NCBI RefSeq assembly: GCF_054482525.1
Contig: NZ_CM137006.1
Strand: one strand, 5' to 3'
Length of the DNA: 64,000 bases
Shown: positions 1 through 23,160 of the stretch, in pieces
Layout of the letters: the number at the start of each line of letters is the position of its first letter
Position numbering within the stretch: the stretch's first letter is position 1
Made by a program: the position numbers and the translations under genes
The notes under the pieces: generated by a model
Databases searched by the model: none
Seen by the model: the letters and a program-made list of their open reading frames with translations, nothing else
What the model was told of the DNA's origin: nothing

Positions 1-1158
1 GATCTCCACCAGCGCGCGCTGCAACAGGGGCTGGCGTCACATTTTGTCTACGGCTACGGCAAAGGCGGCAAAGAGAGCGTCAGCCATCAAAACTATCCGC
101 AGGTCATCAAACATACGCCGCGGATGACCGCGATGGCGAACATTGCGTTGTTTCGTCTGTTTAATCGCGATCTGTTTGGCAATTTCAATGAGTTATATCG
201 CACTATTACCCGCACACCGGGTCCGGTGGTCCTGCATTTTCATGTGCTGCACAGCTACTGGTTGAATCTAAAGAACGTAGTGCGTTTTTGTGAAAAGGTA
301 AAAAAACATAAACCGGATATCACACTGGTCTGGACGCTGCACGACCACTGGAGCGTTACCGGACGCTGCGCCTTTACCGACGGTTGCGAAGGCTGGAAAA
401 CGGGCTGCCAGAAATGCCCGACCTTAAATAATTATCCGCCGGTGAAGATTGATCGCGCACACCAACTGGTGGCGGGTAAACGCCAGTTATTCCGCGAGAT
501 GCTGGCACTGGGCTGTCAGTTTATTTCCCCCAGCCAGCATGTGGCTGATGCTTTCAATAGTCTGTACGGTCCAGGGCGTTGCCGGATTATCAATAATGGC
601 ATTGATATGGCAACCGAAGCGATTCTGGCGGACTTGCCTCCGGTGCGCGAAACCCAGGGCAAGCCGAAAATCGCGGTGGTGGCGCATGATCTGCGTTACG
701 ACGGCAAAACTAATCAGCAACTGGTGCGTGAGATGATGGCGCTGGGCGACAAAATCGAACTGCATACCTTTGGTAAGTTCTCGCCGTTCACCGCTGGCAA
801 CGTGGTTAATCACGGCTTTGAAACTGACAAGCGCAAGTTGATGAGCGCGCTCAATCAGATGGATGCGCTGGTATTCAGTTCTCGCGTCGATAACTACCCA
901 CTGATTTTGTGTGAGGCGTTATCAATTGGCGTGCCGGTGATTGCCACCCATAGCGATGCGGCGAGGGAAGTGCTGCAAAAATCCGGCGGTAAAACCGTCA
1001 GCGAAGAAGACGTGCTGCAACTGGTGCAGTTAAGCAAACCGGAAATCGCGCAGGCGATATTTGGTACCACGCTGGCTGAGTTCAGCCAACGCAGCCGCGC
1101 CGCCTACAGTGGACAACAGATGCTGGAGGAGTATGTCAACTTCTATCAGAATCTGTAG
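1..1158 (+). CDS. wcaC: Colanic acid biosynthesis glycosyltransferase WcaC (5' end truncated by window edge)
   Basis: Frame 1 is open from base 1 with no stop before the listed ORF 124..1158; GT4-like C-terminal domain; position immediately upstream of wcaD/wcaE/wcaF in conserved order. Confidence 0.85.
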   Translation, partial: DLHQRALQQGLASHFVYGYGKGGKESVSHQNYPQVIKHTPRMTAMANIALFRLFNRDLFGNFNELYRTITRTPGPVVLHFHVLHSYWLNLKNVVRFCEKVKKHKPDITLVWTLHDHWSVTGRCAFTDGCEGWKTGCQKCPTLNNYPPVKIDRAHQLVAGKRQLFREMLALGCQFISPSQHVADAFNSLYGPGRCRIINNGIDMATEAILADLPPVRETQGKPKIAVVAHDLRYDGKTNQQLVREMMALGDKIELHTFGKFSPFTAGNVVNHGFETDKRKLMSALNQMDALVFSSRVDNYPLILCEALSIGVPVIATHSDAAREVLQKSGGKTVSEEDVLQLVQLSKPEIAQAIFGTTLAEFSQRSRAAYSGQQMLEEYVNFYQNL

Positions 1159-2350
1159 CTACCTGCTGCTGCCGCTGATCTACCTGCTGGTTAACGTCAA
1201 AATCGCCCAGCTTGGCGAAAGTTTCCCCATCACCATCGTCACTTTTTTACCTGTCTTGTTACTGCTGTTTTTAGAACGCATCAGCGTTAAAAAATTGATG
1301 ATTGCCTTAGGGATTGGCGCGGGACTCACGGCGTTTAACTACCTGTTTGGTCAGTCGTTGGATGCCAGTAAATACGTCACTTCAACCATGCTGTTTGTCT
1401 ATATTGTGATCATTATTGGCATGGTGTGGAGTATTCGCTTTAAAACGATTTCGCCCCACAACCACCGCAAGATATTACGCTTTTTTTATCTGGTGGTCGG
1501 GTTGGTGGTGGCGCTGGCGGCGGTGGAGATGGCGCAAATTATCCTCACCGGCGGCAGCAGTATTATGGAATCGATTTCGAAATATCTGATTTACAGCAAC
1601 AGCTATGTGCTGAATTTCATCAAATTCGGCGGCAAGCGCACGACAGCACTTTATTTCGAACCGGCATTTTTCGCTCTGGCATTAATCTCAATTTGGCTCA
1701 GCATCAAACAGTTTGGTATCAAAACCCCTAAAACCGATGCTATGATTCTCGCAGGGATAATATTATCCGGATCGTTTTCAGGGGTTATGACCTTTATCCT
1801 GTTTTATTTGCTGGAGTGGGCATTTCAATATCTGAATAAAGAGGCGATTAAGAAAAAGTTACCGTTAGCATTGATTTCTCTGGCTGTATTCCTGGTTGGT
1901 GTGGTAATCGCGTTTCCTTATATTTCCACCCGTCTGGGCGATTTAGGTACGGAAGGATCGTCATCATATTATCGTATTGTCGGTCCGCTGGTGATGGTCG
2001 GTTATTCTTTGACCCATATTGACGGTGTAGTCAGATTTGGCTCACTTTATGAATATGTCGCATCATTCGGAATATTTAACGGTGCGGATGTCGGAAAAAC
2101 CATAGACAATGGTTTGTATCTGCTGATTATTTATTTTTCCTGGTTCGCAGTGTTTTTATCGCTGTGGTACATGGGGAAAGTGATAAAAATGATGATCAAC
2201 GCTTTTGGTGATAACCGCAATTTTCGCGTGCAATTATATCTTTTTACTCCGGTATCGCTGTTTTTTACCGGTTCGATATTTAGCCCGGAATATGCATTTT
2301 TAATCGTCTGTCCGTTTATTTTGCGAAAAGCGTTAAATATTACGAGGTAA
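1133..2350 (+). CDS. wcaD: Colanic acid polymerase WcaD (multi-pass membrane protein)
   Basis: ORF 1061..2350; internal Met at 1133 ([10 protein letters not shown]...) gives 405 aa; highly hydrophobic; synteny between wcaC and wcaE. Confidence 0.85.
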
Positions 2351-2354
2351 GAAC

Positions 2355-3101
2355 ATGTTGCTTAGCATAATCACTGTCGCGTTTCGTAACCTCGCAGGGA
2401 TAGTCAAAACACATGCCTCGCTGGCGCATCTGGCGCAGGCGGACGATATCAGCTTCGAATGGATTGTTGTCGATGGCGGTTCCAATGACGGCACCCGTGA
2501 GTACCTGGAAAATCTCAATGGTATCTATAACCTACGCTTTGTCAGCGAACCAGATAACGGTATCTACGACGCCATGAACAAGGGCATTGCGATGGCACAA
2601 GGCAAGTTCGCGTTGTTTCTCAACTCAGGTGATATTTTTCATCAGGATGCCGCAAATTTTGTCCGTAAGTTAAAAGTACAAAAAGATAACGTGATGATCA
2701 CTGGCGATGCGCTGCTGGATTTTGGCGACGGGCATAAAATTAAACGTAGCGCCAAACCGGGCTGGTATATTTATCACAGCCTGCCCGCCAGTCATCAGGC
2801 GATATTTTTCCCGGTATCCGGCTTGAAAAAATGGCGTTATGACCTGGAATATAAAGTTTCTTCTGATTACGCGCTGGCGGCTAAAATGTATAAAGCTGGT
2901 TATGCATTTAGAAAACTCAATGGCCTGGTGTCTGAATTTTCTATGGGTGGAGTATCTACCACCAATAATATGGAATTGTGTGCTGACGCCAAAAAAGTCC
3001 AACGACAAATATTACATGTGCCTGGCTTCTGGACTGAATTATCCTGGCATTTACGCCAACGTACTACCTCAAAGACGAAAGCCTTATATAACAAAAGCTG
3101 A
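2355..3101 (+). CDS. wcaE: Colanic acid biosynthesis glycosyltransferase WcaE (GT2)
   Basis: 248 aa; GT2 motifs ([19 protein letters not shown]); synteny. Confidence 0.88.
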
Positions 3102-3116
3102 ATATAAGGGAAAACG

Positions 3117-3665
3117 ATGCAGAATTTAAGTGGTTTCTCGGTACCGAAAGGGTTCCGGGGCGGCAACGCTATTAAAGTGCAATTGTGGTGGGCAGTACAG
3201 GCAACATTATTTGCCTGGTCGCCACAAGTATTGTATCGCTGGCGGGCATTTTTATTACTTTTATTCGGGGCAAAAATAGGAAAAAACGTAGTTATTCGTC
3301 CGTCAGTAAAAATTACCTATCCGTGGAAATTAACTTTAGGTGATTACGCGTGGGTCGGCGATGAGGTCAATTTATATACCCTCGGTGAAATAACCATTGG
3401 CGCACATTCGGTGATATCGCAAAAAAGTTATTTATGCACCGGGAGCCACGACCATGCAAGTCAACATTTCACCATTAACGCCACGCCTATTGTGATTGGC
3501 GAGAAATGCTGGCTGGCGACAGATGTTTTTGTTGCCCCTGGCGTCACGATCGGCGACGGCACCGTCGTGGGTGCACGAAGCAGTGTTTTTAAATCGCTTC
3601 CGGCAAATGTGGTTTGCCGGGGGAATCCCGCAGTGGTGATACGCGAACGCGTTGAAACTGAATAA
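3117..3665 (+). CDS. wcaF: Colanic acid biosynthesis acetyltransferase WcaF (hexapeptide-repeat)
   Basis: 182 aa; left-handed beta-helix acetyltransferase-like repeats (IGDGTVVGARS); synteny. Confidence 0.88.
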   Translation: MQNLSGFSVPKGFRGGNAIKVQLWWAVQATLFAWSPQVLYRWRAFLLLLFGAKIGKNVVIRPSVKITYPWKLTLGDYAWVGDEVNLYTLGEITIGAHSVISQKSYLCTGSHDHASQHFTINATPIVIGEKCWLATDVFVAPGVTIGDGTVVGARSSVFKSLPANVVCRGNPAVVIRERVETE

Positions 3666-3690: not shown

Positions 3691-4812
3691 ATGTCAAAAG
3701 TCGCTCTCATCACCGGTGTAACCGGACAAGACGGTTCTTACCTGGCAGAGTTTCTGCTGGAAAAAGGTTACGAGGTGCATGGTATTAAGCGTCGTGCATC
3801 GTCATTCAACACCGAGCGCGTGGATCACATTTATCAGGATCCGCACACCTGCAACCCGAAATTCCATCTGCATTATGGCGACCTGAGTGATACCTCCAAC
3901 CTGACGCGCATTTTGCGTGAAGTACAGCCGGATGAAGTGTACAACCTGGGTGCAATGAGCCACGTTGCAGTTTCTTTTGAGTCACCGGAATATACCGCAG
4001 ACGTTGATGCGATGGGTACGCTGCGCCTGCTGGAGGCGATCCGCTTCCTCGGTCTGGAAAAGAAAACCCGTTTCTATCAGGCTTCCACCTCTGAACTGTA
4101 CGGTCTGGTGCAGGAAATTCCGCAGAAAGAAACCACGCCGTTCTATCCACGCTCTCCGTATGCGGTCGCCAAACTGTATGCCTACTGGATCACCGTTAAC
4201 TACCGCGAATCCTACGGCATGTATGCCTGTAACGGTATTCTCTTCAACCATGAATCCCCGCGCCGCGGCGAAACCTTCGTTACCCGCAAAATCACCCGCG
4301 CAATCGCCAACATCGCTCAGGGGCTGGAGTCGTGCCTGTACCTCGGCAATATGGATTCCCTGCGCGACTGGGGCCATGCCAAAGACTACGTAAAAATGCA
4401 GTGGATGATGCTGCAACAGGAACAGCCGGAAGATTTCGTTATCGCGACCGGCGTTCAGTACTCCGTGCGTCAGTTCGTGGAAATGGCGGCAGCACAGCTG
4501 GGTATCAAACTGCGCTTTGAAGGCACGGGCGTTGAAGAGAAGGGCATTGTGGTTTCCGTCACCGGGCATGACGCGCCAGGCGTTAAACCGGGCGATGTGA
4601 TTATCGCCGTTGATCCGCGCTACTTCCGTCCGGCTGAAGTTGAAACGCTGCTCGGTGACCCGACCAAAGCGCACGAAAAACTGGGCTGGAAACCGGAAAT
4701 CACCCTCAGAGAGATGGTGTCTGAAATGGTGGCTAATGACCTCGAAGCGGCGAAAAAACACTCTCTGCTGAAATCTCACGGCTACGACGTGGCGATCGCG
4801 CTGGAGTCATAA
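3691..4812 (+). CDS. gmd: GDP-mannose 4,6-dehydratase (colanic acid copy)
   Basis: 373 aa; N-terminal Rossmann motif [12 protein letters not shown]; SDR-type YxxxK; followed by fcl. Confidence 0.95.
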
Positions 4813-4814
4813 GC

Positions 4815-5780
4815 ATGAGTAAACAACGCATTTTTATTGCTGGCCATCGCGGGATGGTCGGTTCCGCCATCAGGCGGCAGCTCGAACAGCGCGGTGATGT
4901 AGAGCTGGTATTACGCACCCGCGATGAACTGAACCTGCTGGACAGCCGCGCCGTGCATGATTTCTTTGCCAGCGAACGTATTGACCAGGTCTATCTGGCG
5001 GCGGCGAAAGTGGGCGGCATTGTTGCCAACAACACCTATCCGGCGGATTTCATCTACCAGAACATGATGATTGAGAGCAACATCATTCACGCCGCGCATC
5101 AGAACGACGTGAACAAACTGCTGTTTCTCGGATCGTCCTGTATCTACCCGAAACTGGCAAAACAGCCGATGGCAGAAAGCGAGTTATTGCAGGGTACGCT
5201 GGAGCCGACCAACGAGCCTTACGCCATTGCCAAAATCGCCGGGATCAAACTGTGCGAATCTTACAACCGCCAGTACGGACGCGATTACCGCTCAGTCATG
5301 CCGACCAACCTGTATGGCCCGCATGACAACTTCCACCCGAGTAATTCGCATGTGATCCCTGCATTGCTGCGTCGCTTCCACGAGGCGACGGCACAGAATG
5401 CACCGGACGTGGTGGTATGGGGCAGCGGTACACCGATGCGTGAATTCCTGCACGTCGATGATATGGCGGCGGCGAGCATTCATGTCATGGAGCTGGCGCA
5501 TGAAGTCTGGCTGGAGAACACCCAGCCGATGCTGTCGCACATTAACGTCGGCACGGACGTTGACTGCACTATCCGCGAGCTGGCTCAAACCATCGCCAAA
5601 GTGGTGGGTTACAAAGGTCGGGTGGTTTTTGATGCCAGCAAACCGGATGGTACGCCGCGCAAACTGCTGGATGTGACGCGCCTGCATCAGCTTGGCTGGT
5701 ATCACGAAATCTCACTGGAAGCGGGGCTTGCCAGCACTTACCAGTGGTTCCTTCAGAATCAAGACCGCTTTCGGGGGTAA
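4815..5780 (+). CDS. fcl: GDP-L-fucose synthase (GDP-4-keto-6-deoxymannose epimerase/reductase)
   Basis: 321 aa; [10 protein letters not shown] Rossmann motif; immediately downstream of gmd. Confidence 0.95.
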
Positions 5781-5782
5781 TG

Positions 5783-6262
5783 ATGTTTTTACGTCAGGAA
5801 GACTTTGCCACGGTAGTGCGCTCCACACCGCTTGTCTCTCTCGACTTTATTGTCGAGAACAGTCGCGGCGAGTTTCTGCTTGGCAAAAGAACCAACCGCC
5901 CGGCGCAGGGTTACTGGTTTGTGCCGGGAGGGCGCGTGCAGAAAGACGAAACGCTGGAAGCCGCATTTGAGCGGCTGACGATGGCGGAACTGGGGCTGCG
6001 TCTGCCGATAACAGCAGGCCAGTTTTACGGTGTCTGGCAGCACTTTTATGACGATAACTTCTCCGGCACGGATTTCACCACTCACTATGTGGTGCTCGGT
6101 TTTCGCTTCAGAGTCGCGGAAGAAGAGCTGTTACTGCCGGATGAGCAGCATGACGATTACCGCTGGCTGACGCCGGACGCGTTGCTCGCCAGTGACAATG
6201 TTCACGCTAACAGCCGCGCCTATTTTCTCGCTGAGAAGCGTGCCGGAGTACCCGGATTATGA
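5783..6262 (+). CDS. gmm: GDP-mannose mannosyl hydrolase (Nudix)
   Basis: ORF 5744..6262; tandem ATGs at 5780/5783 abut the fcl stop; Nudix-like region; 159-160 aa. Confidence 0.88.
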
Positions 6263-7482
6263 AAATACTGGTCTACGGCATTAACTACTCGCCGGAGTTA
6301 ACCGGCATCGGCAAATACACCGGAGAGATGGTGGAATGGCTTGCGGCACAAGGTCATGAGGTGCGGGTCATTACCGCACCGCCTTACTACCCGCAGTGGC
6401 AGGTGGGCGAGAACTATTCCGCCTGGCGGTACAAACGAGAAGAGGGGGCCGCTACGGTGTGGCGCTGCCCGCTGTACGTGCCAAAACAGCCGAGCACCCT
6501 GAAACGCCTGTTGCATCTCGGCAGTTTTGCCGTCAGCAGTTTTTTCCCGTTGATGGCGCAACGTCGCTGGAAGCCGGATCGCATTATCGGCGTAGTGCCA
6601 ACGCTGTTTTGCACGCCGGGAATGCGCCTGCTGGCGAAACTCTCTGGCGCGCGTACCGTGCTGCATATTCAGGATTACGAAGTGGATGCCATGCTGGGGC
6701 TGGGCCTTGCCGGAAAAGGCAAAGGCGGCAAAGTGGCACAGCTGGCAACGGCGTTCGAACGTAGCGGACTGCATAACGTCGATAACGTCTCCACGATTTC
6801 GCGTTCGATGATGAATAAAGCCATCGAAAAAGGCGTGGCGGCAGAAAACGTCATTTTCTTCCCCAACTGGTCAGAAATTGCCCGTTTTCAGCATGTCGCA
6901 GACGCCGATGTTGATGCCCTTCGTAACCAGCTTGGCCTGCCGGATAACAAAAAAATCATTCTTTACTCCGGCAATATTGGTGAAAAGCAGGGGCTGGAAA
7001 ACGTTATTGAAGCAGCCGAACGTCTGCGCGATGAACCGCTGATTTTTGCCATTGTTGGGCAGGGCGGCGGCAAAGCGCGGCTTGAAAAAATGGCGCAGCA
7101 GCGTGGACTGCACAACATGCAATTTTTTCCGCTGCAATCGTATGACGCTTTACCCGCACTGCTGAAGATGGGCGATTGCCATCTGGTGGTGCAAAAACGC
7201 GGCGCGGCAGATGCCGTATTGCCGTCGAAACTGACCAATATTCTGGCGGTAGGCGGTAACGCGGTGATTACCGCAGAGGCCCACACAGAACTGGGGCAGC
7301 TTTGCGAAACCTTTCCGGGCATTGCGGTTTGCGTAGAACCGGAATCGGTCGAGGCGCTGGTGGCGGGGATCCGTCAGGCGCTCCTGCTGCCCAAACACAA
7401 CACGGTGGCACGTGAATATGCCGAACGCACGCTCGATAAAGAGAACGTGTTACGTCAATTTATAAATGATATTCGGGGATAA
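6259..7482 (+). CDS. wcaI: Colanic acid biosynthesis glycosyltransferase WcaI (GT4)
   Basis: 407 aa; GT4 fold; synteny between gmm and cpsB. Confidence 0.88.
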
Positions 7483-7484
7483 TT

Positions 7485-8921
7485 ATGGCGCAGTCGAAAC
7501 TCTATCCAGTTGTGATGGCAGGTGGCTCCGGTAGCCGCTTATGGCCGCTTTCCCGCGTACTTTACCCCAAGCAGTTTTTATGCCTGAAAGGCGATCTCAC
7601 CATGCTGCAAACCACCATCTGCCGCCTGAACGGCGTGGAGTGCGAAAGCCCGGTGGTGATTTGCAATGAGCAGCACCGCTTTATTGTCGCGGAACAGCTG
7701 CGTCAACTGAACAAACTCACCGAGAACATTATTCTCGAACCGGCAGGGCGTAACACGGCACCTGCCATTGCGCTGGCGGCGCTGGCGGCAAAACGTCATA
7801 GCCCGGAGAGCGACCCGTTAATGCTGGTCTTGGCGGCGGATCATGTGATTGCCGATGAAGATGCGTTCCGCGCCGCCGTGCGTAACGCCATGCCATATGC
7901 CGAAGCGGGCAAGCTGGTGACCTTCGGCATTGTGCCGGATCTCCCTGAAACCGGTTATGGCTATATTCGTCGCGGTGAAGTGTCTGCTGGTGAGCAGGAT
8001 ACGGTGGCCTTTGAAGTGGCGCAGTTTGTCGAAAAACCGAATCTGGAAACCGCTCAGGCCTATGTGGCAAGCGGCGAATATTACTGGAACAGCGGTATGT
8101 TCCTGTTCCGCGCCGGACGCTATCTAGAAGAACTGAAAAAGTATCGTCCGGATATTCTCGATGCCTGTGAAAAAGCGATGAGCGCCGTCGATCCGGATCT
8201 CGATTTTATTCGCGTGGATGAAGAAGCGTTTCTGGCCTGCCCGGAAGAGTCGGTGGATTACGCGGTCATGGAACGTACGGCAGATGCCGTTGTGGTGCCG
8301 ATGGATGCGGGCTGGAGCGATGTCGGCTCCTGGTCCTCTTTATGGGAGATCAGCGCCCACACCGCCGAGGGCAACGTTTGCCACGGCGATGTGATTAATC
8401 ACAAAACTGAAAACAGCTATGTGTACGCCGAATCTGGTCTGGTCACCACCGTCGGGGTGAAAGATCTGGTGGTGGTGCAGACCAAAGATGCGGTGCTGAT
8501 TGCAGACCGTAACGCGGTACAGGATGTGAAAAAAGTGGTCGAGCAGATCAAAGCCGACGGTCGCCATGAGCATCGGGTGCATCGCGAAGTGTATCGTCCG
8601 TGGGGCAAATATGACTCTATCGACGCGGGCGACCGCTACCAGGTGAAACGCATCACCGTGAAACCGGGCGAGGGCTTGTCGGTACAGATGCACCATCACC
8701 GCGCGGAACACTGGGTGGTTGTCGCGGGAACGGCAAAAGTCACTATCGACGGTGATATCAAACTGCTTGGTGAAAACGAGTCCATTTATATTCCGCTGGG
8801 GGCGACGCACTGCCTGGAAAACCCGGGGAAAATTCCGCTCGATTTAATTGAAGTGCGCTCCGGGTCTTACCTCGAAGAGGATGATGTGGTGCGCTTCGCG
8901 GATCGCTACGGGCGGGTGTAG
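7485..8921 (+). CDS. cpsB: Mannose-1-phosphate guanylyltransferase (colanic acid copy)
   Basis: 478 aa; [15 protein letters not shown] nucleotidyltransferase motif; C-terminal cupin domain. Confidence 0.93.
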
Positions 8922-9022
8922 CAGTTGAATAATCAACCGGATTAATTCTCCGGTAAATAACGACAAAAACAAAATTGGCCGTTTCGGTCAGGGCCAACTA
9001 TTGCCTGAAAAAGGGTAACGAC

Positions 9023-10393
9023 ATGAAAAAATTAACCTGCTTTAAAGTCTACGATATTCGCGGGAAATTAGGCGAAGAACTGAATGAAGATATTGCCTGG
9101 CGTATTGGTCGCGCCTATGGCGAATTTCTTAAACCGAAAACCATTGTTTTAGGCGGTGATGTCCGCCTCACCAGCGAAACCTTAAAACTGGCGCTGGCAA
9201 AAGGTTTACAGGATGCGGGCGTCGATGTGCTGGATATTGGCATGTCCGGCACCGAAGAGATCTATTTCGCCACGTTCCATCTCAGCGTGGATGGCGGCAT
9301 TGAAGTTACCGCCAGCCATAACCCGATGGATTACAACGGCATGAAGCTGGTGCGCGAAGGGGCTCGCCCGATCAGCGGCGATACCGGACTGCGCGACGTC
9401 CAGCGTCTGGCAGAAGCCAATGACTTCCCTCCTGTCGATGAAACCAAACGCGGTCGCTATCAGCAAATCAATCTGCGTGACGCTTACGTTGATCACCTGT
9501 TCGGTTATATCAACGTCAAAAACCTCACGCCGCTCAAGCTGGTGATCAACTCCGGGAACGGCGCGGCGGGGCCGGTGGTGGACGCCATTGAAGCCCGCTT
9601 TAAAGCCCTCGGCGCACCCGTGGAATTGATCAAAGTGCACAACACGCCGGACGGGAATTTCCCCAACGGTATTCCTAACCCGCTGCTGCCGGAATGTCGC
9701 GACGACACCCGCAATGCGGTCATCAAACACGGCGCGGATATGGGCATTGCCTTTGATGGCGATTTTGACCGCTGTTTCCTGTTTGACGAAAAAGGGCAGT
9801 TTATCGAGGGCTACTACATTGTTGGCCTGCTGGCAGAAGCGTTCCTCGAAAAAAATCCCGGCGCGAAGATCATCCACGATCCACGTCTCTCCTGGAACAC
9901 CGTTGATGTGGTGACTGCCGCAGGCGGCACCCCGGTAATGTCGAAAACCGGACACGCCTTTATTAAAGAACGTATGCGCAAGGAAGACGCCATCTACGGT
10001 GGCGAAATGAGCGCCCACCATTACTTCCGTGATTTCGCTTACTGCGACAGCGGCATGATCCCGTGGCTGCTGGTCGCCGAACTGGTGTGCCTGAAAGGGA
10101 AAACGCTGGGCGAACTGGTGCGCGACCGGATGGCAGCGTTTCCGGCAAGCGGTGAGATCAACAGCAAACTGGCGCACCCCGTTGAGGCGATTAATCGCGT
10201 CGAACAGCATTTTAGCCGTGAGGCGCTGGCGGTGGATCGCACCGATGGCATCAGCATGACCTTTGCCGACTGGCGCTTTAACCTGCGCTCCTCCAACACC
10301 GAACCGGTGGTGCGGTTGAATGTGGAATCGCGCGGCGATGTACCGCTGATGGAAGCGCGAACGCGAACTCTGCTGACGTTGCTGAACGAGTAA
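9023..10393 (+). CDS. cpsG: Phosphomannomutase (colanic acid copy)
   Basis: ORF 8975..10393; start taken at MKKLTCFK (456 aa); phosphohexomutase active-site TASHNP. Confidence 0.93.
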
Positions 10394-10447
10394 TGTCGGA
10401 TCTTCCCTTACCCCACTGCGGGTAAGGGGCTAATAACAGGAACAACG

Positions 10448-11842
10448 ATGACAAATCTAAAAAAGCGCGAGCGAGCGAAAACCAATGCATCGTTAATCTC
10501 TATGGTGCAACGCTTTTCAGATATCACCATCATGTTTGCCGGACTATGGCTGGTTTGCGAAGTCAGCGGACTGTCATTCCTCTACATGCACCTGTTGGTG
10601 GCGCTGATTACGCTGGTGGTGTTCCAGATGCTGGGCGGCATCACCGATTTTTATCGCTCATGGCGCGGTGTTCGGGCAGCGACAGAATTTGCTCTGTTGC
10701 TACAAAACTGGACCTTAAGCGTGATTTTCAGCGCCGGATTGGTGGCGTTCAACAATGATTTCGACACGCAACTGAAAATCTGGCTGGCGTGGTATGGGCT
10801 GACCAGCATCGGACTGGTGGTTTGCCGTTCGTGTATTCGCATTGGGGCGGGCTGGCTGCGTAATCATGGCTATAACAAGCGCATGGTCGCGGTGGCGGGG
10901 GATTTAGCCGCCGGACAAATGCTGATGGAGAGCTTCCGTAATCAGCCGTGGTTAGGGTTTGAAGTGGTGGGTGTCTATCACGATCCGAAACCGGGCGGCG
11001 TTTCTAACGACTGGGCGGGTAACCTGCAACAGCTGGTCGAGGATGCGAAAGCGGGCAAGATTCACAACGTCTATATCGCGATGCAAATGTGCGACGGCGC
11101 GCGAGTGAAAAAGCTGGTCCATCAATTGGCGGACACCACCTGTTCGGTGCTGCTGATCCCCGATGTCTTTACCTTCAACATTCTCCATTCACGTCTTGAA
11201 GAGATGAACGGCGTTCCGGTGGTGCCGCTTTACGACACGCCGCTTTCCGGGGTTAACCGCCTGCTCAAACGTGCGGAAGACATTGTGCTGGCGACGCTTA
11301 TCCTGCTGCTGATCTCCCCGGTGCTGTGTTGCATTGCGCTGGCGGTAAAACTCAGTTCACCTGGGCCGGTTATTTTCCGCCAGACTCGCTACGGCATGGA
11401 CGGCAAGCCGATCAAAGTGTGGAAGTTCCGTTCCATGAAAGTGATGGAGAACGACAAAGTGGTGACCCAGGCGACGCAGAACGATCCGCGCGTCACCAAA
11501 GTGGGGAACTTTCTGCGCCGCACCTCGCTGGACGAATTGCCGCAGTTTATCAATGTGCTGACTGGCGGGATGTCGATTGTCGGGCCACGTCCGCACGCAG
11601 TGGCGCATAACGAACAATATCGCCAGCTCATTGAAGGCTACATGCTGCGCCATAAAGTGAAACCGGGCATTACCGGCTGGGCGCAGATTAATGGCTGGCG
11701 CGGCGAAACTGACACGCTGGAGAAAATGGAAAAACGCGTCGAGTTCGACCTTGAGTACATCCGCGAATGGAGCGTCTGGTTCGATATCAAAATCGTTTTC
11801 CTGACGGTATTCAAAGGCTTCGTTAACAAAGCGGCATATTGA
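10448..11842 (+). CDS. wcaJ: Undecaprenyl-phosphate glucose-1-phosphate transferase WcaJ (initiating transferase)
   Basis: 464 aa; N-terminal TM segments plus C-terminal bacterial sugar transferase domain; synteny. Confidence 0.92.
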   Translation: MTNLKKRERAKTNASLISMVQRFSDITIMFAGLWLVCEVSGLSFLYMHLLVALITLVVFQMLGGITDFYRSWRGVRAATEFALLLQNWTLSVIFSAGLVAFNNDFDTQLKIWLAWYGLTSIGLVVCRSCIRIGAGWLRNHGYNKRMVAVAGDLAAGQMLMESFRNQPWLGFEVVGVYHDPKPGGVSNDWAGNLQQLVEDAKAGKIHNVYIAMQMCDGARVKKLVHQLADTTCSVLLIPDVFTFNILHSRLEEMNGVPVVPLYDTPLSGVNRLLKRAEDIVLATLILLLISPVLCCIALAVKLSSPGPVIFRQTRYGMDGKPIKVWKFRSMKVMENDKVVTQATQNDPRVTKVGNFLRRTSLDELPQFINVLTGGMSIVGPRPHAVAHNEQYRQLIEGYMLRHKVKPGITGWAQINGWRGETDTLEKMEKRVEFDLEYIREWSVWFDIKIVFLTVFKGFVNKAAY

Positions 11843-13322: not shown

Positions 13323-13393
13323 GTTGTTGTTTTAGGCACTGGCAATAAAAACAACAACATAACCTCACCTGGCATCAAATTTATGAGGAAAAA

Positions 13394-14674: not shown

Positions 14675-15891
14675 AGGTCGGCTTCTTTTTACTGAAATTC
14701 CCGCTGTCGTCAGAAACCTTCGTCCTCAACCAAATCACTGCGTTTATTGATATGGGCTTTGAGGTGGAGATTGTCGCGCTGCAAAAAGGCGACACCCAGA
14801 ACACCCACGCGGCATGGACGAAATACAACCTTGCCGCCAGAACCCGCTGGTTACAGGACGAACCTACGGGCAAAGTGGCGAAGCTGCGCCACCGCGCCAG
14901 CCAGACCTTACGCGGCATTCATCGTAAAAATACCTGGCAGGCGCTCAACCTCAAACGCTATGGTGCCGAGTCGCGGAACCTGATTTTGTCTGCCATTTGC
15001 GGCCAGGTCGCAACACCGTTTCGCGCCGATGTGTTCATCGCTCATTTTGGCCCGGCGGGGGTAACCGCAGCAAAACTACGGGAACTGGGTGTCATTCGCG
15101 GCAAAATCGCTACTATCTTCCACGGCATTGATATCTCCAGTCGGGAAGTGCTCAACCACTACACCCCCGAATATCAGCAACTGTTTCGCCGTGGCGATTT
15201 GATGCTACCGATAAGCGAGCTGTGGGCCGGAAGGCTGCAAAAAATGGGCTGCCCGAGGGAAAAAATCGCCGTATCGCGCATGGGCGTGGACATGACGCGC
15301 TTTAGCCCGCGTCCGGTGAAAGCGCCCGCAACGCCGCTGGAAATCATTTCCGTCGCACGCTTAACCGAGAAAAAAGGCCTGCATGTGGCGATTGAAGCCT
15401 GCCGTCAGTTGAAAGAGCAGGGCGTGGCATTTCGCTATCGCATCCTCGGCATTGGCCCGTGGGAACGACGCCTGCGCACCCTCATCGAACAATATCAACT
15501 GGAAGATGTGGTGGAGATGCCGGGCTTTAAACCGAGCCATGAAGTGAAAGCGATGCTCGATGACGCGGATGTCTTCCTGTTGCCATCGGTAACGGGTGCG
15601 GACGGTGATATGGAAGGTATTCCGGTGGCACTAATGGAAGCGATGGCGGTCGGCATTCCAGTAGTTTCCACTCTGCATAGCGGAATACCGGAACTGGTAG
15701 AGGCCGATAAATCCGGCTGGCTGGTGCCTGAGAACGATGCTCGCGCACTGGCGCAACGACTGGCGGCGTTTAGCCAACTGGACACCGACGAACTGGCTCC
15801 GGTCGTCAAACGCGCACGCGAAAAAGTCGAACACGATTTTAACCAGCAGGTGATCAATCGAGAACTCGCCAGCTTGCTGCAGGCTTTATAG
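14671..15891 (+). CDS. wcaL: Colanic acid biosynthesis glycosyltransferase WcaL (GT4)
   Basis: 406 aa; GT4 motif region ([28 protein letters not shown]); 4-bp overlap with wcaK. Confidence 0.88.
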
Positions 15892-15901
15892 AGGAGAACG
15901 C

Positions 15902-17296
15902 ATGCCATTTAAAAAACTCTCCCGACGCACCTTCCTGACGGCAAGCTCGGCGCTTGCCTTCCTCCATACCCCTTTCGCTCGCGCACTTCCCGACCAACAG
16001 AGCGTTAACATTAACGACTACAACCCTCACGACTGGATCGCCTCATTTAAACAAGCCTTCAGCGAAGGGCAAACAGTCGTCGTGCCTGCCGGATTGGTTT
16101 GCGACAATATCAACACCGGCATCTTCATTCCTCCTGGCAAAACGTTACACATCCTTGGAAGCCTGCGCGGCAACGGCAGAGGGCGATTTGTTTTACAGGA
16201 CGGCAGCCAGGTGACAGGGGAGGAGGGCGGCAGTATGCATAACATCACCCTGGATGTGCGTGGTTCTGACTGCACCATCAAAGGGTTGGCGATGAGCGGC
16301 TTTGGCCCGGTAACGCAGATTTATATCGGCGGCAAAAACAAACGGGTCATGCGCAACCTGACCATCGATAACTTGACCGTTAGCCACGCTAATTACGCCA
16401 TTTTACGCCAGGGATTTCATAACCAGATTATCGGTGCCAACATCACCAACTGTAAGTTCAGCGACTTACAGGGCGACGCCATTGAATGGAACGTGGCAAT
16501 TAACGACAGTGATATTTTGATTTCCGACCACATCATCGAGCGCATCAACTGTACTAACGGAAAAATCAACTGGGGCATTGGCATAGGCCTTGCGGGAAGT
16601 ACCTACAATAACAATTACCCGGAAGACCAGACAGTGAAAAATTTTGTTGTGGCGAATATCACGGGATCGGATTGTCGGCAGTTGATACATGTTGAAAATG
16701 GTAAACATTTTGTTATTCGTAATATCAAAGCCCGCAATATCACACCGGATTTCAGTAAGAAAGCAGGTATTGATAACGCCACAGTTGCTATTTATGGTTG
16801 TGACAACTTTGTGATTGATAATATTGAAATGATTAATAGTGCCGGGATGTTAATCGGCTATGGGGTAATTAAAGGCAAATATCTCTCGATACCGCAGAAT
16901 TTCCGGGTGAATAATATTCAACTGGATAATACTCATCTTGCTTATAAATTGCGCGGCATTCAAATCTCCGCCGGGAATGCTGTCTCCTTTGTGGCGCTGA
17001 CTAACATTGAGATGAAGCGTGCGTCGCTGGAGTTACACAACAAACCGCAACATCTTTTTATGCGTAATATCAATGTGATGCAGGAATCCTCAGTTGGACC
17101 CGCATTGAGCATGAACTTCGACATGCGCAAAGACGTACGAGGTGTCTTTATGGCGAAAAAAGAAACACTGCTATCTCTTGCAAATGTTCATGCGGTGAAT
17201 GAAAGAGGGCAAAGCTCTGTCGATATCGACAGGATTAATCACCATATTGTTAATGTGGAAAAGATTAACTTTAGATTGCCGGAACGGAGGGAGTAG
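15902..17296 (+). CDS. wcaM: Colanic acid biosynthesis protein WcaM (secreted, beta-helix-like)
   Basis: 464 aa; N-terminal signal/Tat-like ([13 protein letters not shown]); last gene of wca cluster by synteny. Confidence 0.88.
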
Positions 17297-17453
17297 ATTT
17301 GCGACCATTCATAAACTTACTGGATATAATGTTCTAAAAGATTATAATCCTCACACTAACTGTTAAAGCTGGGGCTGGGCAGCATTGACTACTCAGGGAA
17401 GGTACTCATCTTTATCTTGTGTTTCTTACGTAACAACCAGACTAAAGTGATTT

Positions 17454-18449
17454 ATGAACGATAACGTTTTGCTCATAGGAGCTTCCGGATTCGTAGGAAC
17501 CCGACTACTTGAAACGGCAATTGCTGACTTTAATATCAAGAACCTGGACAAACAGCAGAGCCACTTTTATCCAGAAATCACACAGATTGGCGATGTTCGT
17601 GATCAACAGACACTCGACCAGGCGTTAGCCGGTTTTGACACTGTTGTACTACTGGCAGCGGAACACCGCGATGATGTCAGTCCTACTTCTCTCTATTATG
17701 ATGTCAACGTTCAGGGTACCCGCAATGTACTGGCGGCCATGGAAAAAAATGGCGTTAAAAATATCATCTTTACCAGTTCCGTTGCTGTTTATGGTTTGAA
17801 CAAACACAACCCTGACGAAAACCATCCACACGACCCTTTCAACCACTACGGCAAAAGTAAGTGGCAGGCAGAGGAGGTGCTGCGTGAATGGTATAACAAA
17901 GCACCAACAGAACGTTCATTAACCATCATCCGTCCTACCGTTATCTTCGGTGAACGCAACCGCGGTAACGTCTATAACTTGCTGAAACAGATCGCTGGCG
18001 GCAAGTTTATGATGGTGGGCGCAGGGACTAACTATAAGTCCATGGCTTATGTTGGAAACATTGTTGAGTTTATTAAGTACAAACTGAAGAATGTTGCCGC
18101 AGGTTATGAGGTTTATAACTACGTTGATAAGCCAGACCTGAACATGAACCAGTTGGTTGCTGAAGTTGAACAAAGCCTGAACAAAAAGATCCCTTCTATG
18201 CACTTGCCTTACCCACTAGGAATGCTGGGTGGATATTGCTTTGATATCCTGAGCAAAATTACGGGCAAAAAATACGCTGTCAGCTCTGTGCGCGTGAAAA
18301 AATTCTGCGCAACTACACAGTTTGACGCAACGAAAGTGCATTCTTCAGGTTTTGTGGCACCGTATACGCTGTCGCAAGGTCTGGATCGAACTCTGCAGTA
18401 TGAATTCGTCCATGCCAAAAAAGACGACATAACGTTTGTTTCTGAGTAA
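17454..18449 (+). CDS. gne: NAD-dependent sugar 4-epimerase (Gne-type; UDP-GlcNAc/GalNAc-related epimerase)
   Basis: 331 aa; N-terminal Rossmann GASGFVG; SDR-like YGKSK; located between wcaM and galF, where K-12 as I recall it has no gene but other E. coli lineages carry gne. Confidence 0.75.
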   Translation: MNDNVLLIGASGFVGTRLLETAIADFNIKNLDKQQSHFYPEITQIGDVRDQQTLDQALAGFDTVVLLAAEHRDDVSPTSLYYDVNVQGTRNVLAAMEKNGVKNIIFTSSVAVYGLNKHNPDENHPHDPFNHYGKSKWQAEEVLREWYNKAPTERSLTIIRPTVIFGERNRGNVYNLLKQIAGGKFMMVGAGTNYKSMAYVGNIVEFIKYKLKNVAAGYEVYNYVDKPDLNMNQLVAEVEQSLNKKIPSMHLPYPLGMLGGYCFDILSKITGKKYAVSSVRVKKFCATTQFDATKVHSSGFVAPYTLSQGLDRTLQYEFVHAKKDDITFVSE

Positions 18450-18691
18450 TGCAGACGAGTCAGAGAAAAAAGGACCAGGTTAGACTACGATTATTCGGAA
18501 AGAGGTACTGATTAAATTATCAGTATGTGGATTTCCGAGTAATCCGAGTAACCCAGATGCTGATGGTGTGTAGTGTTATCGTAAGGTTTAATCAAAGTTA
18601 TGCGGAGCTAAGCTTTGGTATATAGCCATAACGTTTGGCTAACCTATGGCAATAATTTACGCACTATCAGCCACTTAGAGGTAGGAAAAGA

Positions 18692-19585
18692 ATGACGAAT
18701 TTAAAAGCAGTTATACCGGTAGCAGGTCTTGGGATGCATATGTTGCCTGCCACTAAGGCGATACCCAAAGAGATGCTACCGATCGTCGACAAGCCAATGA
18801 TTCAGTACATTGTTGACGAGATTGTGGCTGCAGGGATCAAAGAAATCCTCCTGGTAACTCATGCGTCCAAGAACGCGGTCGAAAACCACTTCGACACCTC
18901 TTATGAATTAGAATCTCTCCTTGAACAGCGCGTGAAGCGTCAGCTGCTGGCGGAAGTGCAGTCGATCTGTCCACCGGGAGTGACCATTATGAACGTGCGT
19001 CAGGGCGAACCTTTAGGTTTAGGCCACTCCATTTTGTGTGCGCGACCCGCCATTGGCGACAACCCATTTGTCGTGGTACTGCCAGACGTAGTGATCGACG
19101 ACGCCAGCGCCGACCCGCTGCGCTACAACCTTGCTGCCATGATTGCGCGCTTCAATGAAACGGGCCGTAGCCAGGTGCTGGCAAAACGTATGCCGGGTGA
19201 CCTTTCTGAATACTCCGTTATTCAGACCAAAGAGCCGCTGGATCGTGAAGGCAAAGTCAGCCGCATTGTTGAATTTATCGAAAAACCGGATCAGCCGCAG
19301 ACGCTGGACTCAGACATCATGGCCGTTGGTCGCTATGTGCTTTCTGCGGATATTTGGCCGGAACTTGAACGCACTCAACCTGGTGCATGGGGGCGTATTC
19401 AGCTGACTGATGCCATTGCTGAACTGGCGAAAAAACAGTCCGTTGATGCAATGCTGATGACCGGTGACAGTTACGATTGTGGCAAGAAAATGGGCTATAT
19501 GCAGGCGTTTGTGAAGTATGGACTGCGCAACCTGAAAGAAGGGGCGAAGTTCCGTAAAGGTATTGAAAAGCTGTTAAGCGAATAA
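18692..19585 (+). CDS. galF: UTP-glucose-1-phosphate uridylyltransferase regulatory subunit GalF
   Basis: 297 aa; nucleotidyltransferase motif [23 protein letters not shown]; flanks O-antigen cluster as expected. Confidence 0.95.
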
Positions 19586-19838
19586 TGAAAATCTGACCGG
19601 ATGTAACGGTTGATAAGAAAATTATAACGGCGGTGAGGATTCGTGGGGCTAATTGTACTCATTGCCTCATTCTTTCTTTATACCGTTCTAAATATGAGTA
19701 ACAATAACTTTTCAATAGGCATTTATTGTGGGAGGCTGAGATTTTCTCCATCTCTGAAGCGATTTGGTAAAACGTTCAGAGTTAAGCTTTTCGAACTAAC
19801 CATAACGGTTAATGCTAGTTACAACTAGGACATGCATG

Positions 19839-19877
19839 CAGTACGCTGGTAGCTGTTGAGCCAGGGGCGGTAGCGTG
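19839..19877 (+). promoter_or_regulatory. JUMPstart element with ops site (GGCGGTAGCGTG) for RfaH-dependent antitermination
   Basis: Sequence cagtacgctggtagctgttgagccaggggcggtagcgtg read directly; 39-bp JUMPstart consensus ending in the 12-bp ops motif, ~80 bp upstream of the first O-antigen gene. Confidence 0.85.
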
Positions 19878-19957
19878 AATTAAATGTTTATCCCATATTA
19901 CTTAACAAATTGTAAACTATCGTGCAAAATAAGACTTGTTAAGTACGTAGGCTCGTT

Positions 19958-21193
19958 ATGTTAAAAAACATCATCTATTTATTAAGCGTTCAAGGTGGCA
20001 ATTATATATTTCCATTGGTCACACTGCCTTATCTTGTCAGGATCCTTGAACCTACAGGATACGGGATATATGGGTATAGTTTTGCTGTGGTCCAATATTT
20101 TATATTATTTATTGATTACGGATTTAACTACTCAGCGCCCAAAATCATATCAATATCAAGGGAAAATACTGATTCCATAAGTAAAGTTTTTTGGAATGTA
20201 ACGTTTATCAAAATAATTGCAGCATCTCTTGGTTTGTTAATTATTTATTTAATTTCGGAATTGAATATCATTGATTACCAAATTAAATTTATCATTCTTG
20301 CATACATATCTGTCGTAGGAAATTTAATATATCCAGTATGGTTTTTTCAAGGGCTGGAAAAAATGTTAGGAATAGCGATAAGTATGTTTTCCGCACGCTT
20401 ACTTACACTATGTTTAACATTTTTATTGGTTAAAAGTGAAAAGGATCTTGGTATAGCGATAACAATACAATCATCAATAACAGTTATTGCAGGTATAATA
20501 TCTACATATTTTTTATTTTCTCTTAAAAAAATAATATGGGTACCACCATCCTTATCCAAAATGAAAGAGTTAATTTATGATGGATGGCATTACTTCATTT
20601 CCTCTGCAGCAATAAGCCTTTATACTACTAGTTCAACAATAATATTAGGTGCATTATCAGGAACAACTGCAGTGGGATATTTTATCGCTGCAGATAAAAT
20701 TAGGCTTGCACTACAAGGCGTTATTGGTCCTATAACCCAAGCTGTTTTTCCTAGAGTAACTTATATAATGAAGGATAATCATGACGATGGACTATTATTA
20801 GCCAGGAAAGTGTTTCGATGGCAATTTTCACTGATGTTCGTACTTTCCATATTTCTTTACTTTTTTGCAGACGATATAATTTTAATCATGTATGGAAAAA
20901 CGTATCATGAATCTTTAGAAATACTCAAGGTTTTAGCTTTTACTCCAGCAATAGTTACGGTAAGTAATTATATTGCAATTTTAGTAATGATCCCTATTGG
21001 TATGAAAAAAGAATTTACAAAAATTATTACTACCAGTGGATTAATAGGCCTACTGATAATTACTTATTTGACTAATGAATACTCAGGAGTTGGTACAGCA
21101 ATAGGAGTTATTTCAACTGAGTTTATAATAATGGCGAGATTTTACTTTTTGATTAAGAAAACAAATAAATTAAATAATTTAAATTTATTGTAG
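19958..21193 (+). CDS. wzx: O-antigen flippase Wzx
   Basis: 411 aa, ~12 predicted TM segments, polysaccharide biosynthesis protein family N-terminus; AT-rich; first gene after JUMPstart. Confidence 0.75.
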   Translation: MLKNIIYLLSVQGGNYIFPLVTLPYLVRILEPTGYGIYGYSFAVVQYFILFIDYGFNYSAPKIISISRENTDSISKVFWNVTFIKIIAASLGLLIIYLISELNIIDYQIKFIILAYISVVGNLIYPVWFFQGLEKMLGIAISMFSARLLTLCLTFLLVKSEKDLGIAITIQSSITVIAGIISTYFLFSLKKIIWVPPSLSKMKELIYDGWHYFISSAAISLYTTSSTIILGALSGTTAVGYFIAADKIRLALQGVIGPITQAVFPRVTYIMKDNHDDGLLLARKVFRWQFSLMFVLSIFLYFFADDIILIMYGKTYHESLEILKVLAFTPAIVTVSNYIAILVMIPIGMKKEFTKIITTSGLIGLLIITYLTNEYSGVGTAIGVISTEFIIMARFYFLIKKTNKLNNLNLL

Positions 21194-21201
21194 GGCTAAC
21201 A

Positions 21202-21927
21202 ATGAATAAACCAACTTTAACAATAGTTACCGTTGTGTACAATGGCGAAATGTATATCGAAGATACTATAAAAAGTGTCTTATCACAAAACTGCAATGAT
21301 GACATTGAATATATTATAATTGATGGTGCATCAACGGATAATACTCTAAATATTGTTAATTCTTACAAAAATGAAATTTCATATATCATTTCTGAAAATG
21401 ATAATGGTATATATGATGCAATGAATAAAGGTGTGTTAAAAGCATCTGGAAATTATATAGGATTTATAAACGCTGATGATTTTTATAATAAAGATGTATT
21501 ATGTCAAGTAATAAAAGTAATGAAAGAAAATAAATATGATGTTATTTATGGAAATATGTCTTTGGTAGAGGCTGATAGCTTGGATGTTATTCAGGTCCGG
21601 AGGCCTAAAGACTGGAAACTACATATAGATATGAATTTAAGCCATCCGGCCACATTTATTAGAAAAGATATCCACAGAGAAAATTTATTTAATACTAGCT
21701 ATAAAATTGCTTCTGATTATGATCTTTTGCTAAAATTGAAGAAACAAGGTTATATCTTTCATTATATTGATAAAAATATCTCTTCGATGAGAAATGCCGG
21801 CCTTAGCGCTAAAAATGTAAAATTAGCATTGGAGGAAGCGAGACAAATCCGAAAGAAAAGAAACGGGAAATTATATGCGGCGTTAGCAGATATTTACCTA
21901 TTTATGAGAAAAGTTATAAAAAGATGA
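21202..21927 (+). CDS. Glycosyltransferase family 2 (WcaE-like)
   Basis: 241 aa; motifs IIDGASTDNT and [11 protein letters not shown] shared with WcaE (2355..3101). Confidence 0.8.
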   Translation: MNKPTLTIVTVVYNGEMYIEDTIKSVLSQNCNDDIEYIIIDGASTDNTLNIVNSYKNEISYIISENDNGIYDAMNKGVLKASGNYIGFINADDFYNKDVLCQVIKVMKENKYDVIYGNMSLVEADSLDVIQVRRPKDWKLHIDMNLSHPATFIRKDIHRENLFNTSYKIASDYDLLLKLKKQGYIFHYIDKNISSMRNAGLSAKNVKLALEEARQIRKKRNGKLYAALADIYLFMRKVIKR

Positions 21928-23159: not shown

Positions 23160-23160
23160 A

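Follow-up and report, generated by a model that had tools for sequence, protein, structure and literature searches.

Escherichia coli K-12 is not known to have a second gmd and fcl or an O-antigen manB, as its rfb cluster is rhamnose-based, and colanic-acid-like manB genes were reportedly found in O-antigen clusters by Jensen and Reeves in 2001. The colanic-acid (wca/cps) cluster of K-12, following the descriptions by Stevenson et al. (1996) and Andrianopoulos et al. (1998) as cited in PMC7685785 and PMC12595478, has the gene order gmd-fcl-gmm-wcaI-cpsB-cpsG, which is also that of the locus studied here, and its gmd, fcl and cpsG are documented members of the RcsB regulon in K-12 data (PMC2731931). 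Other E. coli O-antigen clusters with a gmd of their own include those of O86, O90 and O127, and such clusters are fucose-, colitose- or perosamine-containing (PMC7685785). In O157, O184 and O156, a second gmd-fcl-gmm-manC set lies beside gnd, as in O11. The O11 cluster itself was published by Li et al. (2011, FEMS Immunol Med Microbiol 61:258, as cited in PMC7685785), and its RefSeq-annotated counterpart in PCN033 shares sequence, genes, gene order and position between galF and gnd with the cluster studied here.

The stretch of 64,000 nucleotides analysed here (the window) runs from the colanic-acid (wca) genes through galF, the O-antigen cluster and gnd to his in an E. coli O11 strain. Its first position falls within the wca operon, near wcaC, and the wca promoter and RcsAB box lie outside the window. 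Assignment to O11 was made from the O11-type wzx and wzy found between galF and gnd: positions 19600–32600 are 100% identical to PCN033 (NZ_CP006632.1), in which RefSeq names both genes "O11 family". Over 49 kb, PCN033 differs from the window by 7 SNPs, and its RefSeq record annotates both of the gene sets described below. Two gmd(-fcl) places were found in about 782 of the 4844 matching records, and among complete E. coli genomes such double loci occur in about 14%. The two-set arrangement is real, ordinary, and already annotated and published, and none of the findings on this locus is new.

Layout of the two GDP-L-fucose gene sets

Both sets lie on the plus strand with intact open reading frames, at the places given in the first-pass annotation of this DNA. 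The colanic-acid set starts with gmd (3691–4812, GDP-mannose 4,6-dehydratase; GC3 0.63; annotated as gmd by RefSeq in PCN033), which matched TIGR01472 with 587 bits (cut-off 415), followed by fcl (4815–5780, GDP-L-fucose synthase; NF047922, 548.9 bits, cut-off 500) and gmm, also termed nudD or wcaH (5783–6262, GDP-mannose mannosyl hydrolase; NF011963, 326 bits, cut-off 146). In the first-pass annotation, the range of this gmm began at an over-extended GTG at 5744; the RefSeq start at 5783 is used here. Downstream lie wcaI (6259–7482), named fucosyltransferase WcaI by RefSeq and assigned to colanic acid by TIGR04007 (900.5 bits, cut-off 800), manC/cpsB (7485–8921, mannose-1-phosphate guanylyltransferase; NF012004, 1115.6 bits, cut-off 859; TIGR01479, 811 bits) and manB/cpsG (9023–10393, phosphomannomutase; NF011943, 1052.9 bits, cut-off 801). 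Scores above the cut-offs of the WcaI and CpsB equivalog models and the CpsG subfamily model add to the likeness with the K-12 colanic cluster. This resident set of gmd, fcl, gmm, cpsB and cpsG, with its E. coli-like codon usage, lies within the wca operon and would supply colanic acid, which is presumably made only while the Rcs phosphorelay is active.

The second set follows the O11-specific wzx, GT2, wzy, GT, galE and GT4 genes (19958–26341, plus strand; GC 0.26–0.36; "O11 family" wzx and wzy in RefSeq). It comprises gmd (26352–27473; TIGR01472, 584.7 bits; GC3 0.25), fcl (27477–28442; NF047922, 537.7 bits, cut-off 500; GC3 0.23), gmm with a TTG start (28445–28900, coordinates identical to the RefSeq CDS; NF011963, 194.8 bits, cut-off 146), manC (28912–30297; TIGR01479, 740.5 bits, cut-off 373) and a GC-rich, cpsG-type manB (31152–32522; NF011943, 1052.7 bits; GC3 0.64 versus 0.23–0.30 in its neighbours). 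One glycosyltransferase gene interrupts each set, at a different position: wcaI between gmm and manC in the former, and a WcaE/WbdO-like GT2 gene (30381–31127, plus strand; 65 bits with the WcaE model, below its cut-off) between manC and manB in the latter.

Each of the ten pathway proteins exceeded the curated cut-off of an NCBIfam model for its expected enzyme, and both Gmd copies matched TIGR01472 over model positions 1–341 of 342. The O-antigen ManC did not reach the CpsB equivalog model (NF012004) and is a ManC but no CpsB orthologue, because its 670.3 bits fall below 859. Both Gmd copies have T, E, Y and K aligned with Thr133, Glu135, Tyr157 and Lys161 (E. coli numbering), which we take, after the published structure, to be the SDR catalytic residues. 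Likewise, both Fcl copies retain Ser107, Cys109, Tyr136, Lys140 and His179. The GGxGxRLWP and FVEKP motifs are found in both ManC copies, and each ManB copy contains the phosphoserine motif TASHNP at residue 96 and the metal motif DGDxDR at residue 245. The pathways, initially described as complete, are so from mannose-6-phosphate onward, since manA is located elsewhere (PMC7685785).

Divergence and origin of the two sets

Amino-acid and nucleotide identities between the two copies are 83.1 and 69.5% for Gmd, 70.9 and 62.7% for Fcl, 48.6 and 50.9% for Gmm, and 58.8 and 57.4% for ManC, versus 97.4 and 95.5% for ManB. At third codon positions, identity is 29–35% in the first four pairs and 90% in manB. 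GC3 ranges from 0.61 to 0.68 among the colanic genes and from 0.23 to 0.30 among the O-set genes, except for the O-set manB (0.64), and the codon adaptation index, with the his and gnd genes of the window as reference, is 0.59–0.76 in the colanic versus 0.42–0.47 in the O set. A second reference, the table of Sharp and Li (1987), yielded indicative values with the same ranking. The first-pass annotation had proposed these pairwise comparisons together with its claims, which fared as follows: the difference in codon usage (manB apart) and the nucleotide divergence outside manB (51–70% identity in four pairs) were borne out, and gmd, fcl and gmm lack the nucleotide-level near-identity by which a recent duplication would have been recognised. 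High protein similarity, also claimed, was found for Gmd and ManB and, moderately, for Fcl, but not for ManC and Gmm.

Neighbour-joining trees (Kimura distances, 200 bootstraps, 16–18 taxa) grouped the O-set Gmd, Fcl and ManC with sequences from O184, O156, E69 and Kosakonia, and then Vibrionaceae, and kept them apart from the resident colanic copies. The O11-type clade received bootstrap values of 89% (Gmd), 99% (Fcl) and 100% (ManC). The split setting the colanic copies apart received 68% for Gmd, whose deep nodes have modest support, and 89% for Fcl; for ManC it received 97% with Vibrio ezurae left unplaced and 62% otherwise. Outgroups were picked by similarity to the O-set Fcl, and E. coli was the only genus to contribute colanic-acid orthologues. 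The scan of genome contigs for relatives is biased to sequences like the O-set Fcl, because its peptide patterns came from that protein, and it is silent on the distribution of colanic-type Fcl. The O-set Fcl is 80% identical to that of Kosakonia and 77% to that of Vibrio ezurae, compared with 71% to the resident colanic copy.

A duplication of the colanic genes within the E. coli lineage, followed by divergence in place, would account for the order gmd-fcl-gmm-...-manC-...-manB common to both sets and for the nearly identical manB copies. We nevertheless rejected it as scarcely credible: third positions are saturated in the other four genes, GC3 values of 0.24 and 0.63 would have had to arise under the mutation bias of a single genome, and the two ManC proteins are 59% identical to each other, whereas both are nearer to Vibrionaceae ManC (62–66%). 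Moreover, the trees set the two sets apart, and the low-GC module is also present in other genera. Separate evolutionary origins, as first suggested from codon usage and divergence, are supported by the trees, by the saturated synonymous sites and by a GC3 gap that one genome could not produce. The gmd-fcl-gmm-manC genes were very probably acquired horizontally within a low-GC O-antigen module, GT4-gmd-fcl-gmm-manC-GT2-manB, of which O184, O156, Kosakonia and Vibrionaceae carry variants. Gmd and Fcl of O157 belong to a colanic-acid-related lineage, unlike the O11 copies, which belong to another.

The manB mosaic, direct repeats and deletions

Nucleotides 1–1332 of the O-antigen manB (31152–32483) are 96.7% identical to those of cpsG (9023–10354), with unrelated flanks; the homology sets in right with the ATG and breaks off around nt 1333. 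The first-pass annotation had rightly singled out manB as the exception to the nucleotide-level divergence and left the cause unexplained. Conservation of the phosphomannomutase protein, without recombination, would fit a conserved enzyme, the ManB proteins of Photobacterium loci being 74–75% identical. However, identity extends to the third positions, GC3 rises abruptly between GT2 (0.26) and manB (0.64), and the similarity is confined to a segment that opens exactly with the ATG and closes around nt 1333. Furthermore, the O156 sister module, with fcl-manC 94–98% identical to those of O184, uses an AT-rich, unrelated phosphomannomutase that is just 21% identical, whereas the manB of O184 is cpsG-like. 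On the strength of the synonymous-site identity, protein conservation was discarded as an explanation with next to no probability.

Comparison of four O-antigen manB with five cpsG sequences (176 variable sites) revealed a common pool of polymorphism in nt 1–1333, with no fixed difference between the two groups, and nine fixed differences in nt 1334–1353, and the last ~40 nt of the O-antigen manB are locus-specific. A very recent gene conversion from the cpsG of the same strain would be in line with the equal length and the 95.5% identity of the two genes, but they differ at 62 positions, 44 of them in nt 1–1332, and the strain's own cpsG is no nearer than those of other strains (94.5–95.5%). 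Closest are the O-antigen manB genes of O7 and O184 strains (96.0–96.3%), which share the C-terminus KTKLILxLLNK with that of O11. Given these relatives and the 62 differences, such a conversion was rejected as very unlikely. The near-identity is instead ascribed to exchange with cpsG: the O-antigen manB is not a foreign gene but a cpsG-type one, which continues to trade sequence with cpsG across loci and strains over nt 1–1333.

A GT2 gene occupies the same place in the O184, O156, Kosakonia, Vibrio, Photobacterium frigidiphilum and Grimontia modules. It is conceivable, although we regard it as rather doubtful, that gmd-fcl-gmm-manC-GT2(-manB) represents a horizontally mobile, self-contained fucosylation cassette with a WcaE/WbdO-type GT2 fucosyltransferase of its own, common to O-antigen loci of Vibrionaceae and enterobacteria, and that its 3' manB has been overwritten repeatedly by cpsG in E. 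coli, the manB body anchoring the installation and swapping of O-modules beside gnd.

Together, the manB copies constitute a pair of direct repeats of 1.33 kb, 22.1 kb apart, with 9023–10354 as the upstream and 31152–32483 as the downstream arm. Homologous recombination between them removes wcaJ through the O-antigen cluster and leaves a single chimeric manB. A synthetic junction query, consisting of cpsB-cpsG nt 1–1332, the 3' end of the O-antigen manB and gnd, was covered to at least 80% in 509 genomes, and deletions were counted only from the top single-place matches. The natural isolates H86 and H88 carry the predicted deletion, with the order wcaI-cpsB-chimeric manB-gnd. The listed matches that rank after the first four mostly represent O75-family clusters, which have colanic-like cpsB and cpsG by gnd and no deletion. 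Of note, H87 and H89 gave similar junction matches, as judged by match pattern alone.

The same manB–cpsG deletion has been published for O14 strains (Jensen & Reeves 2004, as cited in PMC7685785) and in the long-term evolution experiment (PMC4173774; bioRxiv 10.64898/2026.06.14.732165). E. coli B (REL606), O157, O14 and Salmonella resemble the present locus in the nucleotide identity of their manB/cpsG pairs (~95–96%), in the spacing of the direct repeats (~22–23 kb) and in the product, cpsB-chimeric manB-gnd. The O11 cluster duplicates gmd, fcl, gmm, manC and manB, whereas REL606 (O7) duplicates only manC and manB.

Expression and GDP-fucose supply

The O set is part of a series of closely spaced genes on one strand, preceded by a JUMPStart-like element of 39 nt (19839–19877, plus strand) in the galF-wzx intergenic region, which in our judgement resembles the published JUMPStart consensus. 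This element holds the ops sequence GGCGGTAGCGT at 19866–19876, on the coding strand and 82 nt upstream of wzx, as the sole match to the pattern GGCGGTAGnnT in the window (0.32 expected by chance). A promoter and terminator scan of 17200–34400 returned counts at or below chance. From this arrangement, we infer that the O set is transcribed together with the rest of the O11 operon, starting between galF and wzx, with ops pointing to RfaH-dependent antitermination. With the O operon behind JUMPStart/ops, the fucosyltransferase(s) of the O-unit would receive GDP-fucose irrespective of colanic-acid induction, so that a supply independent of Rcs control, as the first-pass annotation had suggested, is plausible.

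The GT2 at 30381–31127 is a candidate fucosyltransferase by sequence, being 29.7% identical to the GT2 at 15509–16255 of an O157 locus, which we take to be WbdO from gene order, and 28.9% to WcaE. Together, fcl and the two WcaE/WbdO-like GT2 genes, at 21202–21927 and 30381–31127, suggest that the O11 O-unit contains L-fucose.

The two sets might instead be redundant, with one of them decaying or silent and no functional partition, as the IS1 inside the O-antigen gmd of one O11 strain and the loss of the O set by deletion in nature and in the laboratory (PMC4173774) could indicate. Against this, both sets are intact and retain their catalytic residues, the O11 gmd-fcl is retained with at least 99% identity in 65 genomes, 65 genomes match the 13-kb O11 cluster query over 80% or more of its length, and conservation of the module extends to other serogroups and genera, which makes redundancy improbable. 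We consider it very probable that the locus as a whole is explained by a resident wca set and a horizontally acquired O11 set, with a manB that exchanges sequence with cpsG and an O operon driven through ops.

The locus would then be a textbook example of an O-antigen cluster that brings its own nucleotide-sugar supply instead of relying on a conditional host pathway. Its manB repeats, so similar and 22 kb apart, also make the region prone to deletions that take out half of the colanic genes along with the O antigen, and such deletions bear on serotyping, rough variants, phage and serum resistance, and read mapping.

Layout, integrity and divergence of the two gene sets

The ORF listing and composition of the window showed polysaccharide genes running on one strand, after which come gnd, ugd, wzzB and the his operon. 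A 13-kb query (19600–32600) matched E. coli PCN033, among other strains, at 100% identity, and in their RefSeq annotation wzx and wzy are labelled "O11 family"; across 49 kb, the window differed from PCN033 by 7 SNPs. The colanic-acid genes were ordered wcaD-E-F-gmd-fcl-gmm-wcaI-cpsB-cpsG-wcaJ-wzxC-wcaK-L-M, with gne, galF, the O11 cluster and gnd downstream of wcaM. The colanic-acid set comprises gmd (3691–4812), fcl (4815–5780), gmm (5783–6262), manC (cpsB; 7485–8921) and manB (cpsG; 9023–10393), with wcaI (6259–7482) separating gmm from manC. The O-antigen set comprises gmd (26352–27473), fcl (27477–28442), gmm (28445–28900), manC (28912–30297) and manB (31152–32522), with a GT2 gene (30381–31127) separating manC from manB.

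Both sets were intact, and the two GDP-L-fucose gene sets described in the first-pass annotation were borne out. Each of the ten pathway proteins exceeded a curated NCBIfam threshold for its expected enzyme; the O-set ManC did so with the general ManC model while failing the CpsB equivalog (670 against 859 bits). The Gmd and Fcl catalytic residues and the ManB and ManC motifs were conserved in each copy. The pathways, previously called complete, are so from mannose-6-phosphate onward, since manA lies elsewhere (PMC7685785). Amino acid and nucleotide identities between the copies were 83.1% and 69.5% (Gmd), 70.9% and 62.7% (Fcl), 48.6% and 50.9% (Gmm), 58.8% and 57.4% (ManC), and 97.4% and 95.5% (ManB), respectively. 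The nucleotide divergence outside manB thus stands as first described, whereas "highly similar" proteins was an overstatement for ManC and Gmm. Third-position identity was saturated at 29–35% for the gmd, fcl, gmm and manC pairs, compared with 90% for manB. Codon usage also differed as claimed, with a codon adaptation index, referenced to the window's own his and gnd genes, of 0.59–0.76 for the colanic and 0.42–0.47 for the O set. GC3 was 0.61–0.68 in the colanic and 0.23–0.30 in the O set, except for the O-set manB (0.64).

Several further features of the region were recorded. The GlcNAc-PP-undecaprenol 4-epimerase gene gne/gnu (17454–18449) is flanked by wcaM and galF, and the AT-rich galE of the O11 cluster (24249–25265) represents another duplicated sugar-nucleotide function. 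The colanic-acid cluster is compositionally mixed, since wcaD, wcaE, wcaF and wcaM (1133–3665 and 15902–17296) have a GC content of 0.43–0.48, compared with 0.54–0.56 for the core genes. Among the window and loci L002–L005, the intergenic regions cpsB–cpsG (8922–9022 in the window; 101, 192 or 280 nt) and wzxC–wcaK (13323–13393; 71 to 371 nt) vary in length with the strain, which points to small repeat elements having been inserted or deleted.

Origin of the O-antigen set

A GC3 gap of 0.4 is impossible between genes under one genome's mutation bias, which argues for a separate origin of the O set. In a scan using one genome per species, the O-set Fcl was 80% identical to that of Kosakonia, 77% to Vibrio ezurae and 73–75% to Photobacterium, Grimontia and Enterovibrio, compared with 71% to the resident paralogue. 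These loci keep the gmd-fcl-gmm-manC order at 38–40% GC, with a GT2 gene after manC in most and manB in some. The two ManC copies share 59%, and Vibrionaceae ManC was 62–66% identical to the O-set and 59–66% to the colanic protein. In neighbour-joining trees (200 bootstraps), the O11 O set, O184, O156, "E69" and Kosakonia formed a clade supported at 89 (Gmd), 99 (Fcl) and 100% (ManC). The split separating the colanic copies from this clade plus Vibrionaceae received 68% (Gmd) and 89% (Fcl), and for ManC 97% with Vibrio ezurae left unplaced, otherwise 62%. Composition, closer relatives in other genera and trees all agree with the separate evolutionary origins initially proposed; no donor species could be named from the one-genome-per-species scan and these trees.

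The O157 O-antigen Gmd and Fcl (19989–22075 in the E. coli O157:H7 F6321 locus) grouped with the colanic-acid lineage at 100% bootstrap rather than with that of O11, O184 and O156, so the second gmd/fcl sets of E. coli do not all share one origin, and serogroups used different sources. In CP089930.1, a species-representative genome (titled E. coli strain E69; locus positions 5876–10576), the Gmd, Fcl and ManC encoded by a gmd-fcl-gmm-manC-GT2 block paired with O156-module proteins in the trees (bootstrap 86–100%).

Exchange and deletion at manB

Similarity between the O-set manB and cpsG began exactly at the ATG and collapsed past approximately nt 1333 of 1371, with 96.7% identity inside the block and unrelated flanks. 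Four O-antigen manB genes (O11, O184, O157 and O7/REL606) were compared with five cpsG; of 176 variable sites, none within nt 1–1333 was a fixed locus difference, and all nine fixed differences fell within nt 1334–1353. These nine make the O-antigen C-terminus distinct from that of cpsG; it reads KTKLILxLLNK in O11, O184 and O7, with another variant in O157. Fresh conversion of the O11 manB from its own cpsG was rejected, as its identity to that cpsG (95.5%) did not exceed its identity to other strains' cpsG, which places the exchange at the population level. This pattern matches that reportedly described by Jensen & Reeves (2001) for Salmonella. The gene is also swappable independently of the module: the O156 fcl-to-manC segment is 94–98% identical to O184, whose manB is cpsG-like, whereas the last gene of the O156 module (24713–26137 in the E. 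coli PSJ-29 locus) encodes a 475-residue phosphomannomutase, AT-rich (GC3 0.26) and only 21% identical to CpsG-type ManB. In O75-family clusters (hits H90–H115), colanic-acid-like cpsB and cpsG copies adjoin wzx and gnd, and manC is also of colanic type in that serogroup.

Arranged as direct repeats, the two manB bodies lie 22,129 bp from each other and share perfectly matching runs as long as 132 bp. Deletions were searched for with a synthetic junction query placing cpsB-manB directly before gnd; its raw count of 509 genomes was inflated by O75-type clusters and is unusable as a deletion count. The two genomes inspected, human clinical isolates FDAARGOS_1249 and 127, have the order wcaI-cpsB-manB-gnd and a single chimeric manB (L086, 7524–8894; L087, 7615–8985), wcaJ through the whole O-antigen cluster being gone. 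Upstream flanks were cpsG-type (ungapped identity 98% in FDAARGOS_1249, 74% in isolate 127), the C-terminus was O-antigen-type in both, and downstream flanks matched at 96% and 85%, respectively. A manB–cpsG deletion has also been published for O14 strains, as cited in PMC7685785 (Jensen & Reeves 2004), and the deletion recurred in 10 of 12 long-term evolution populations, seven times via manB–cpsG recombination (PMC4173774; bioRxiv 10.64898/2026.06.14.732165).

Prevalence, a possible fucosylation cassette and the proposed GDP-fucose supply

The O-set gmd and fcl, queried against 5426 complete E. coli genomes, matched 4843; the hits fell at 5626 places across 4844 records, no genome having more than two, hence approximately 782 records (14%) carry two gmd(-fcl) loci. 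Best-place identity was at least 99% in 65 (O11), 95–99% in eight and 80–90% in 131. In O11 strain STLEFF_29 (NZ_CP058879.1, 3022465–3025332; hit H26), IS1A lies inside the O-antigen gmd, the remaining gmd-fcl being 100% identical to the window. The two-set finding is real, correctly read and ordinary: the arrangement is already known, both sets being present in the RefSeq annotation and covered by published O-antigen genetics and manB/cpsG work.

The two O11 GT2 proteins (30381–31127 and 21202–21927) each show 29–31% identity with WcaE and with the O157 GT2, which we take to be WbdO; a DNGIYDA(L/M)NKG-type motif is common to them and this group of GT2 fucosyltransferases. Among loci L007–L012, those of Kosakonia, Vibrio, Photobacterium frigidiphilum and Grimontia have a GT2 homologue (50–57% amino acid identity) after manC, and two other Photobacterium loci have a weaker one (42%) after manB. 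The gmd-to-GT2 block may be mobile, as a fucosylation cassette that carries its own candidate WcaE/WbdO-like fucosyltransferase.

The sole ops match in the window, GGCGGTAGCGT (19866–19876), lies in the galF–wzx interval, as part of a 39-nt JUMPStart-like sequence. Downstream of it, the O11 genes share a strand, no gap between them exceeding 84 nt, and 24 nt separate the GT2 stop from the manB start. In K-12, the RcsB regulon includes the colanic-acid gmd, fcl and cpsG (PMC2731931). Judged from these sequence features and that regulon, the O set would likely supply GDP-fucose independently of Rcs, as first proposed; this is the standard explanation, with L-fucose presumed in the O11 unit.
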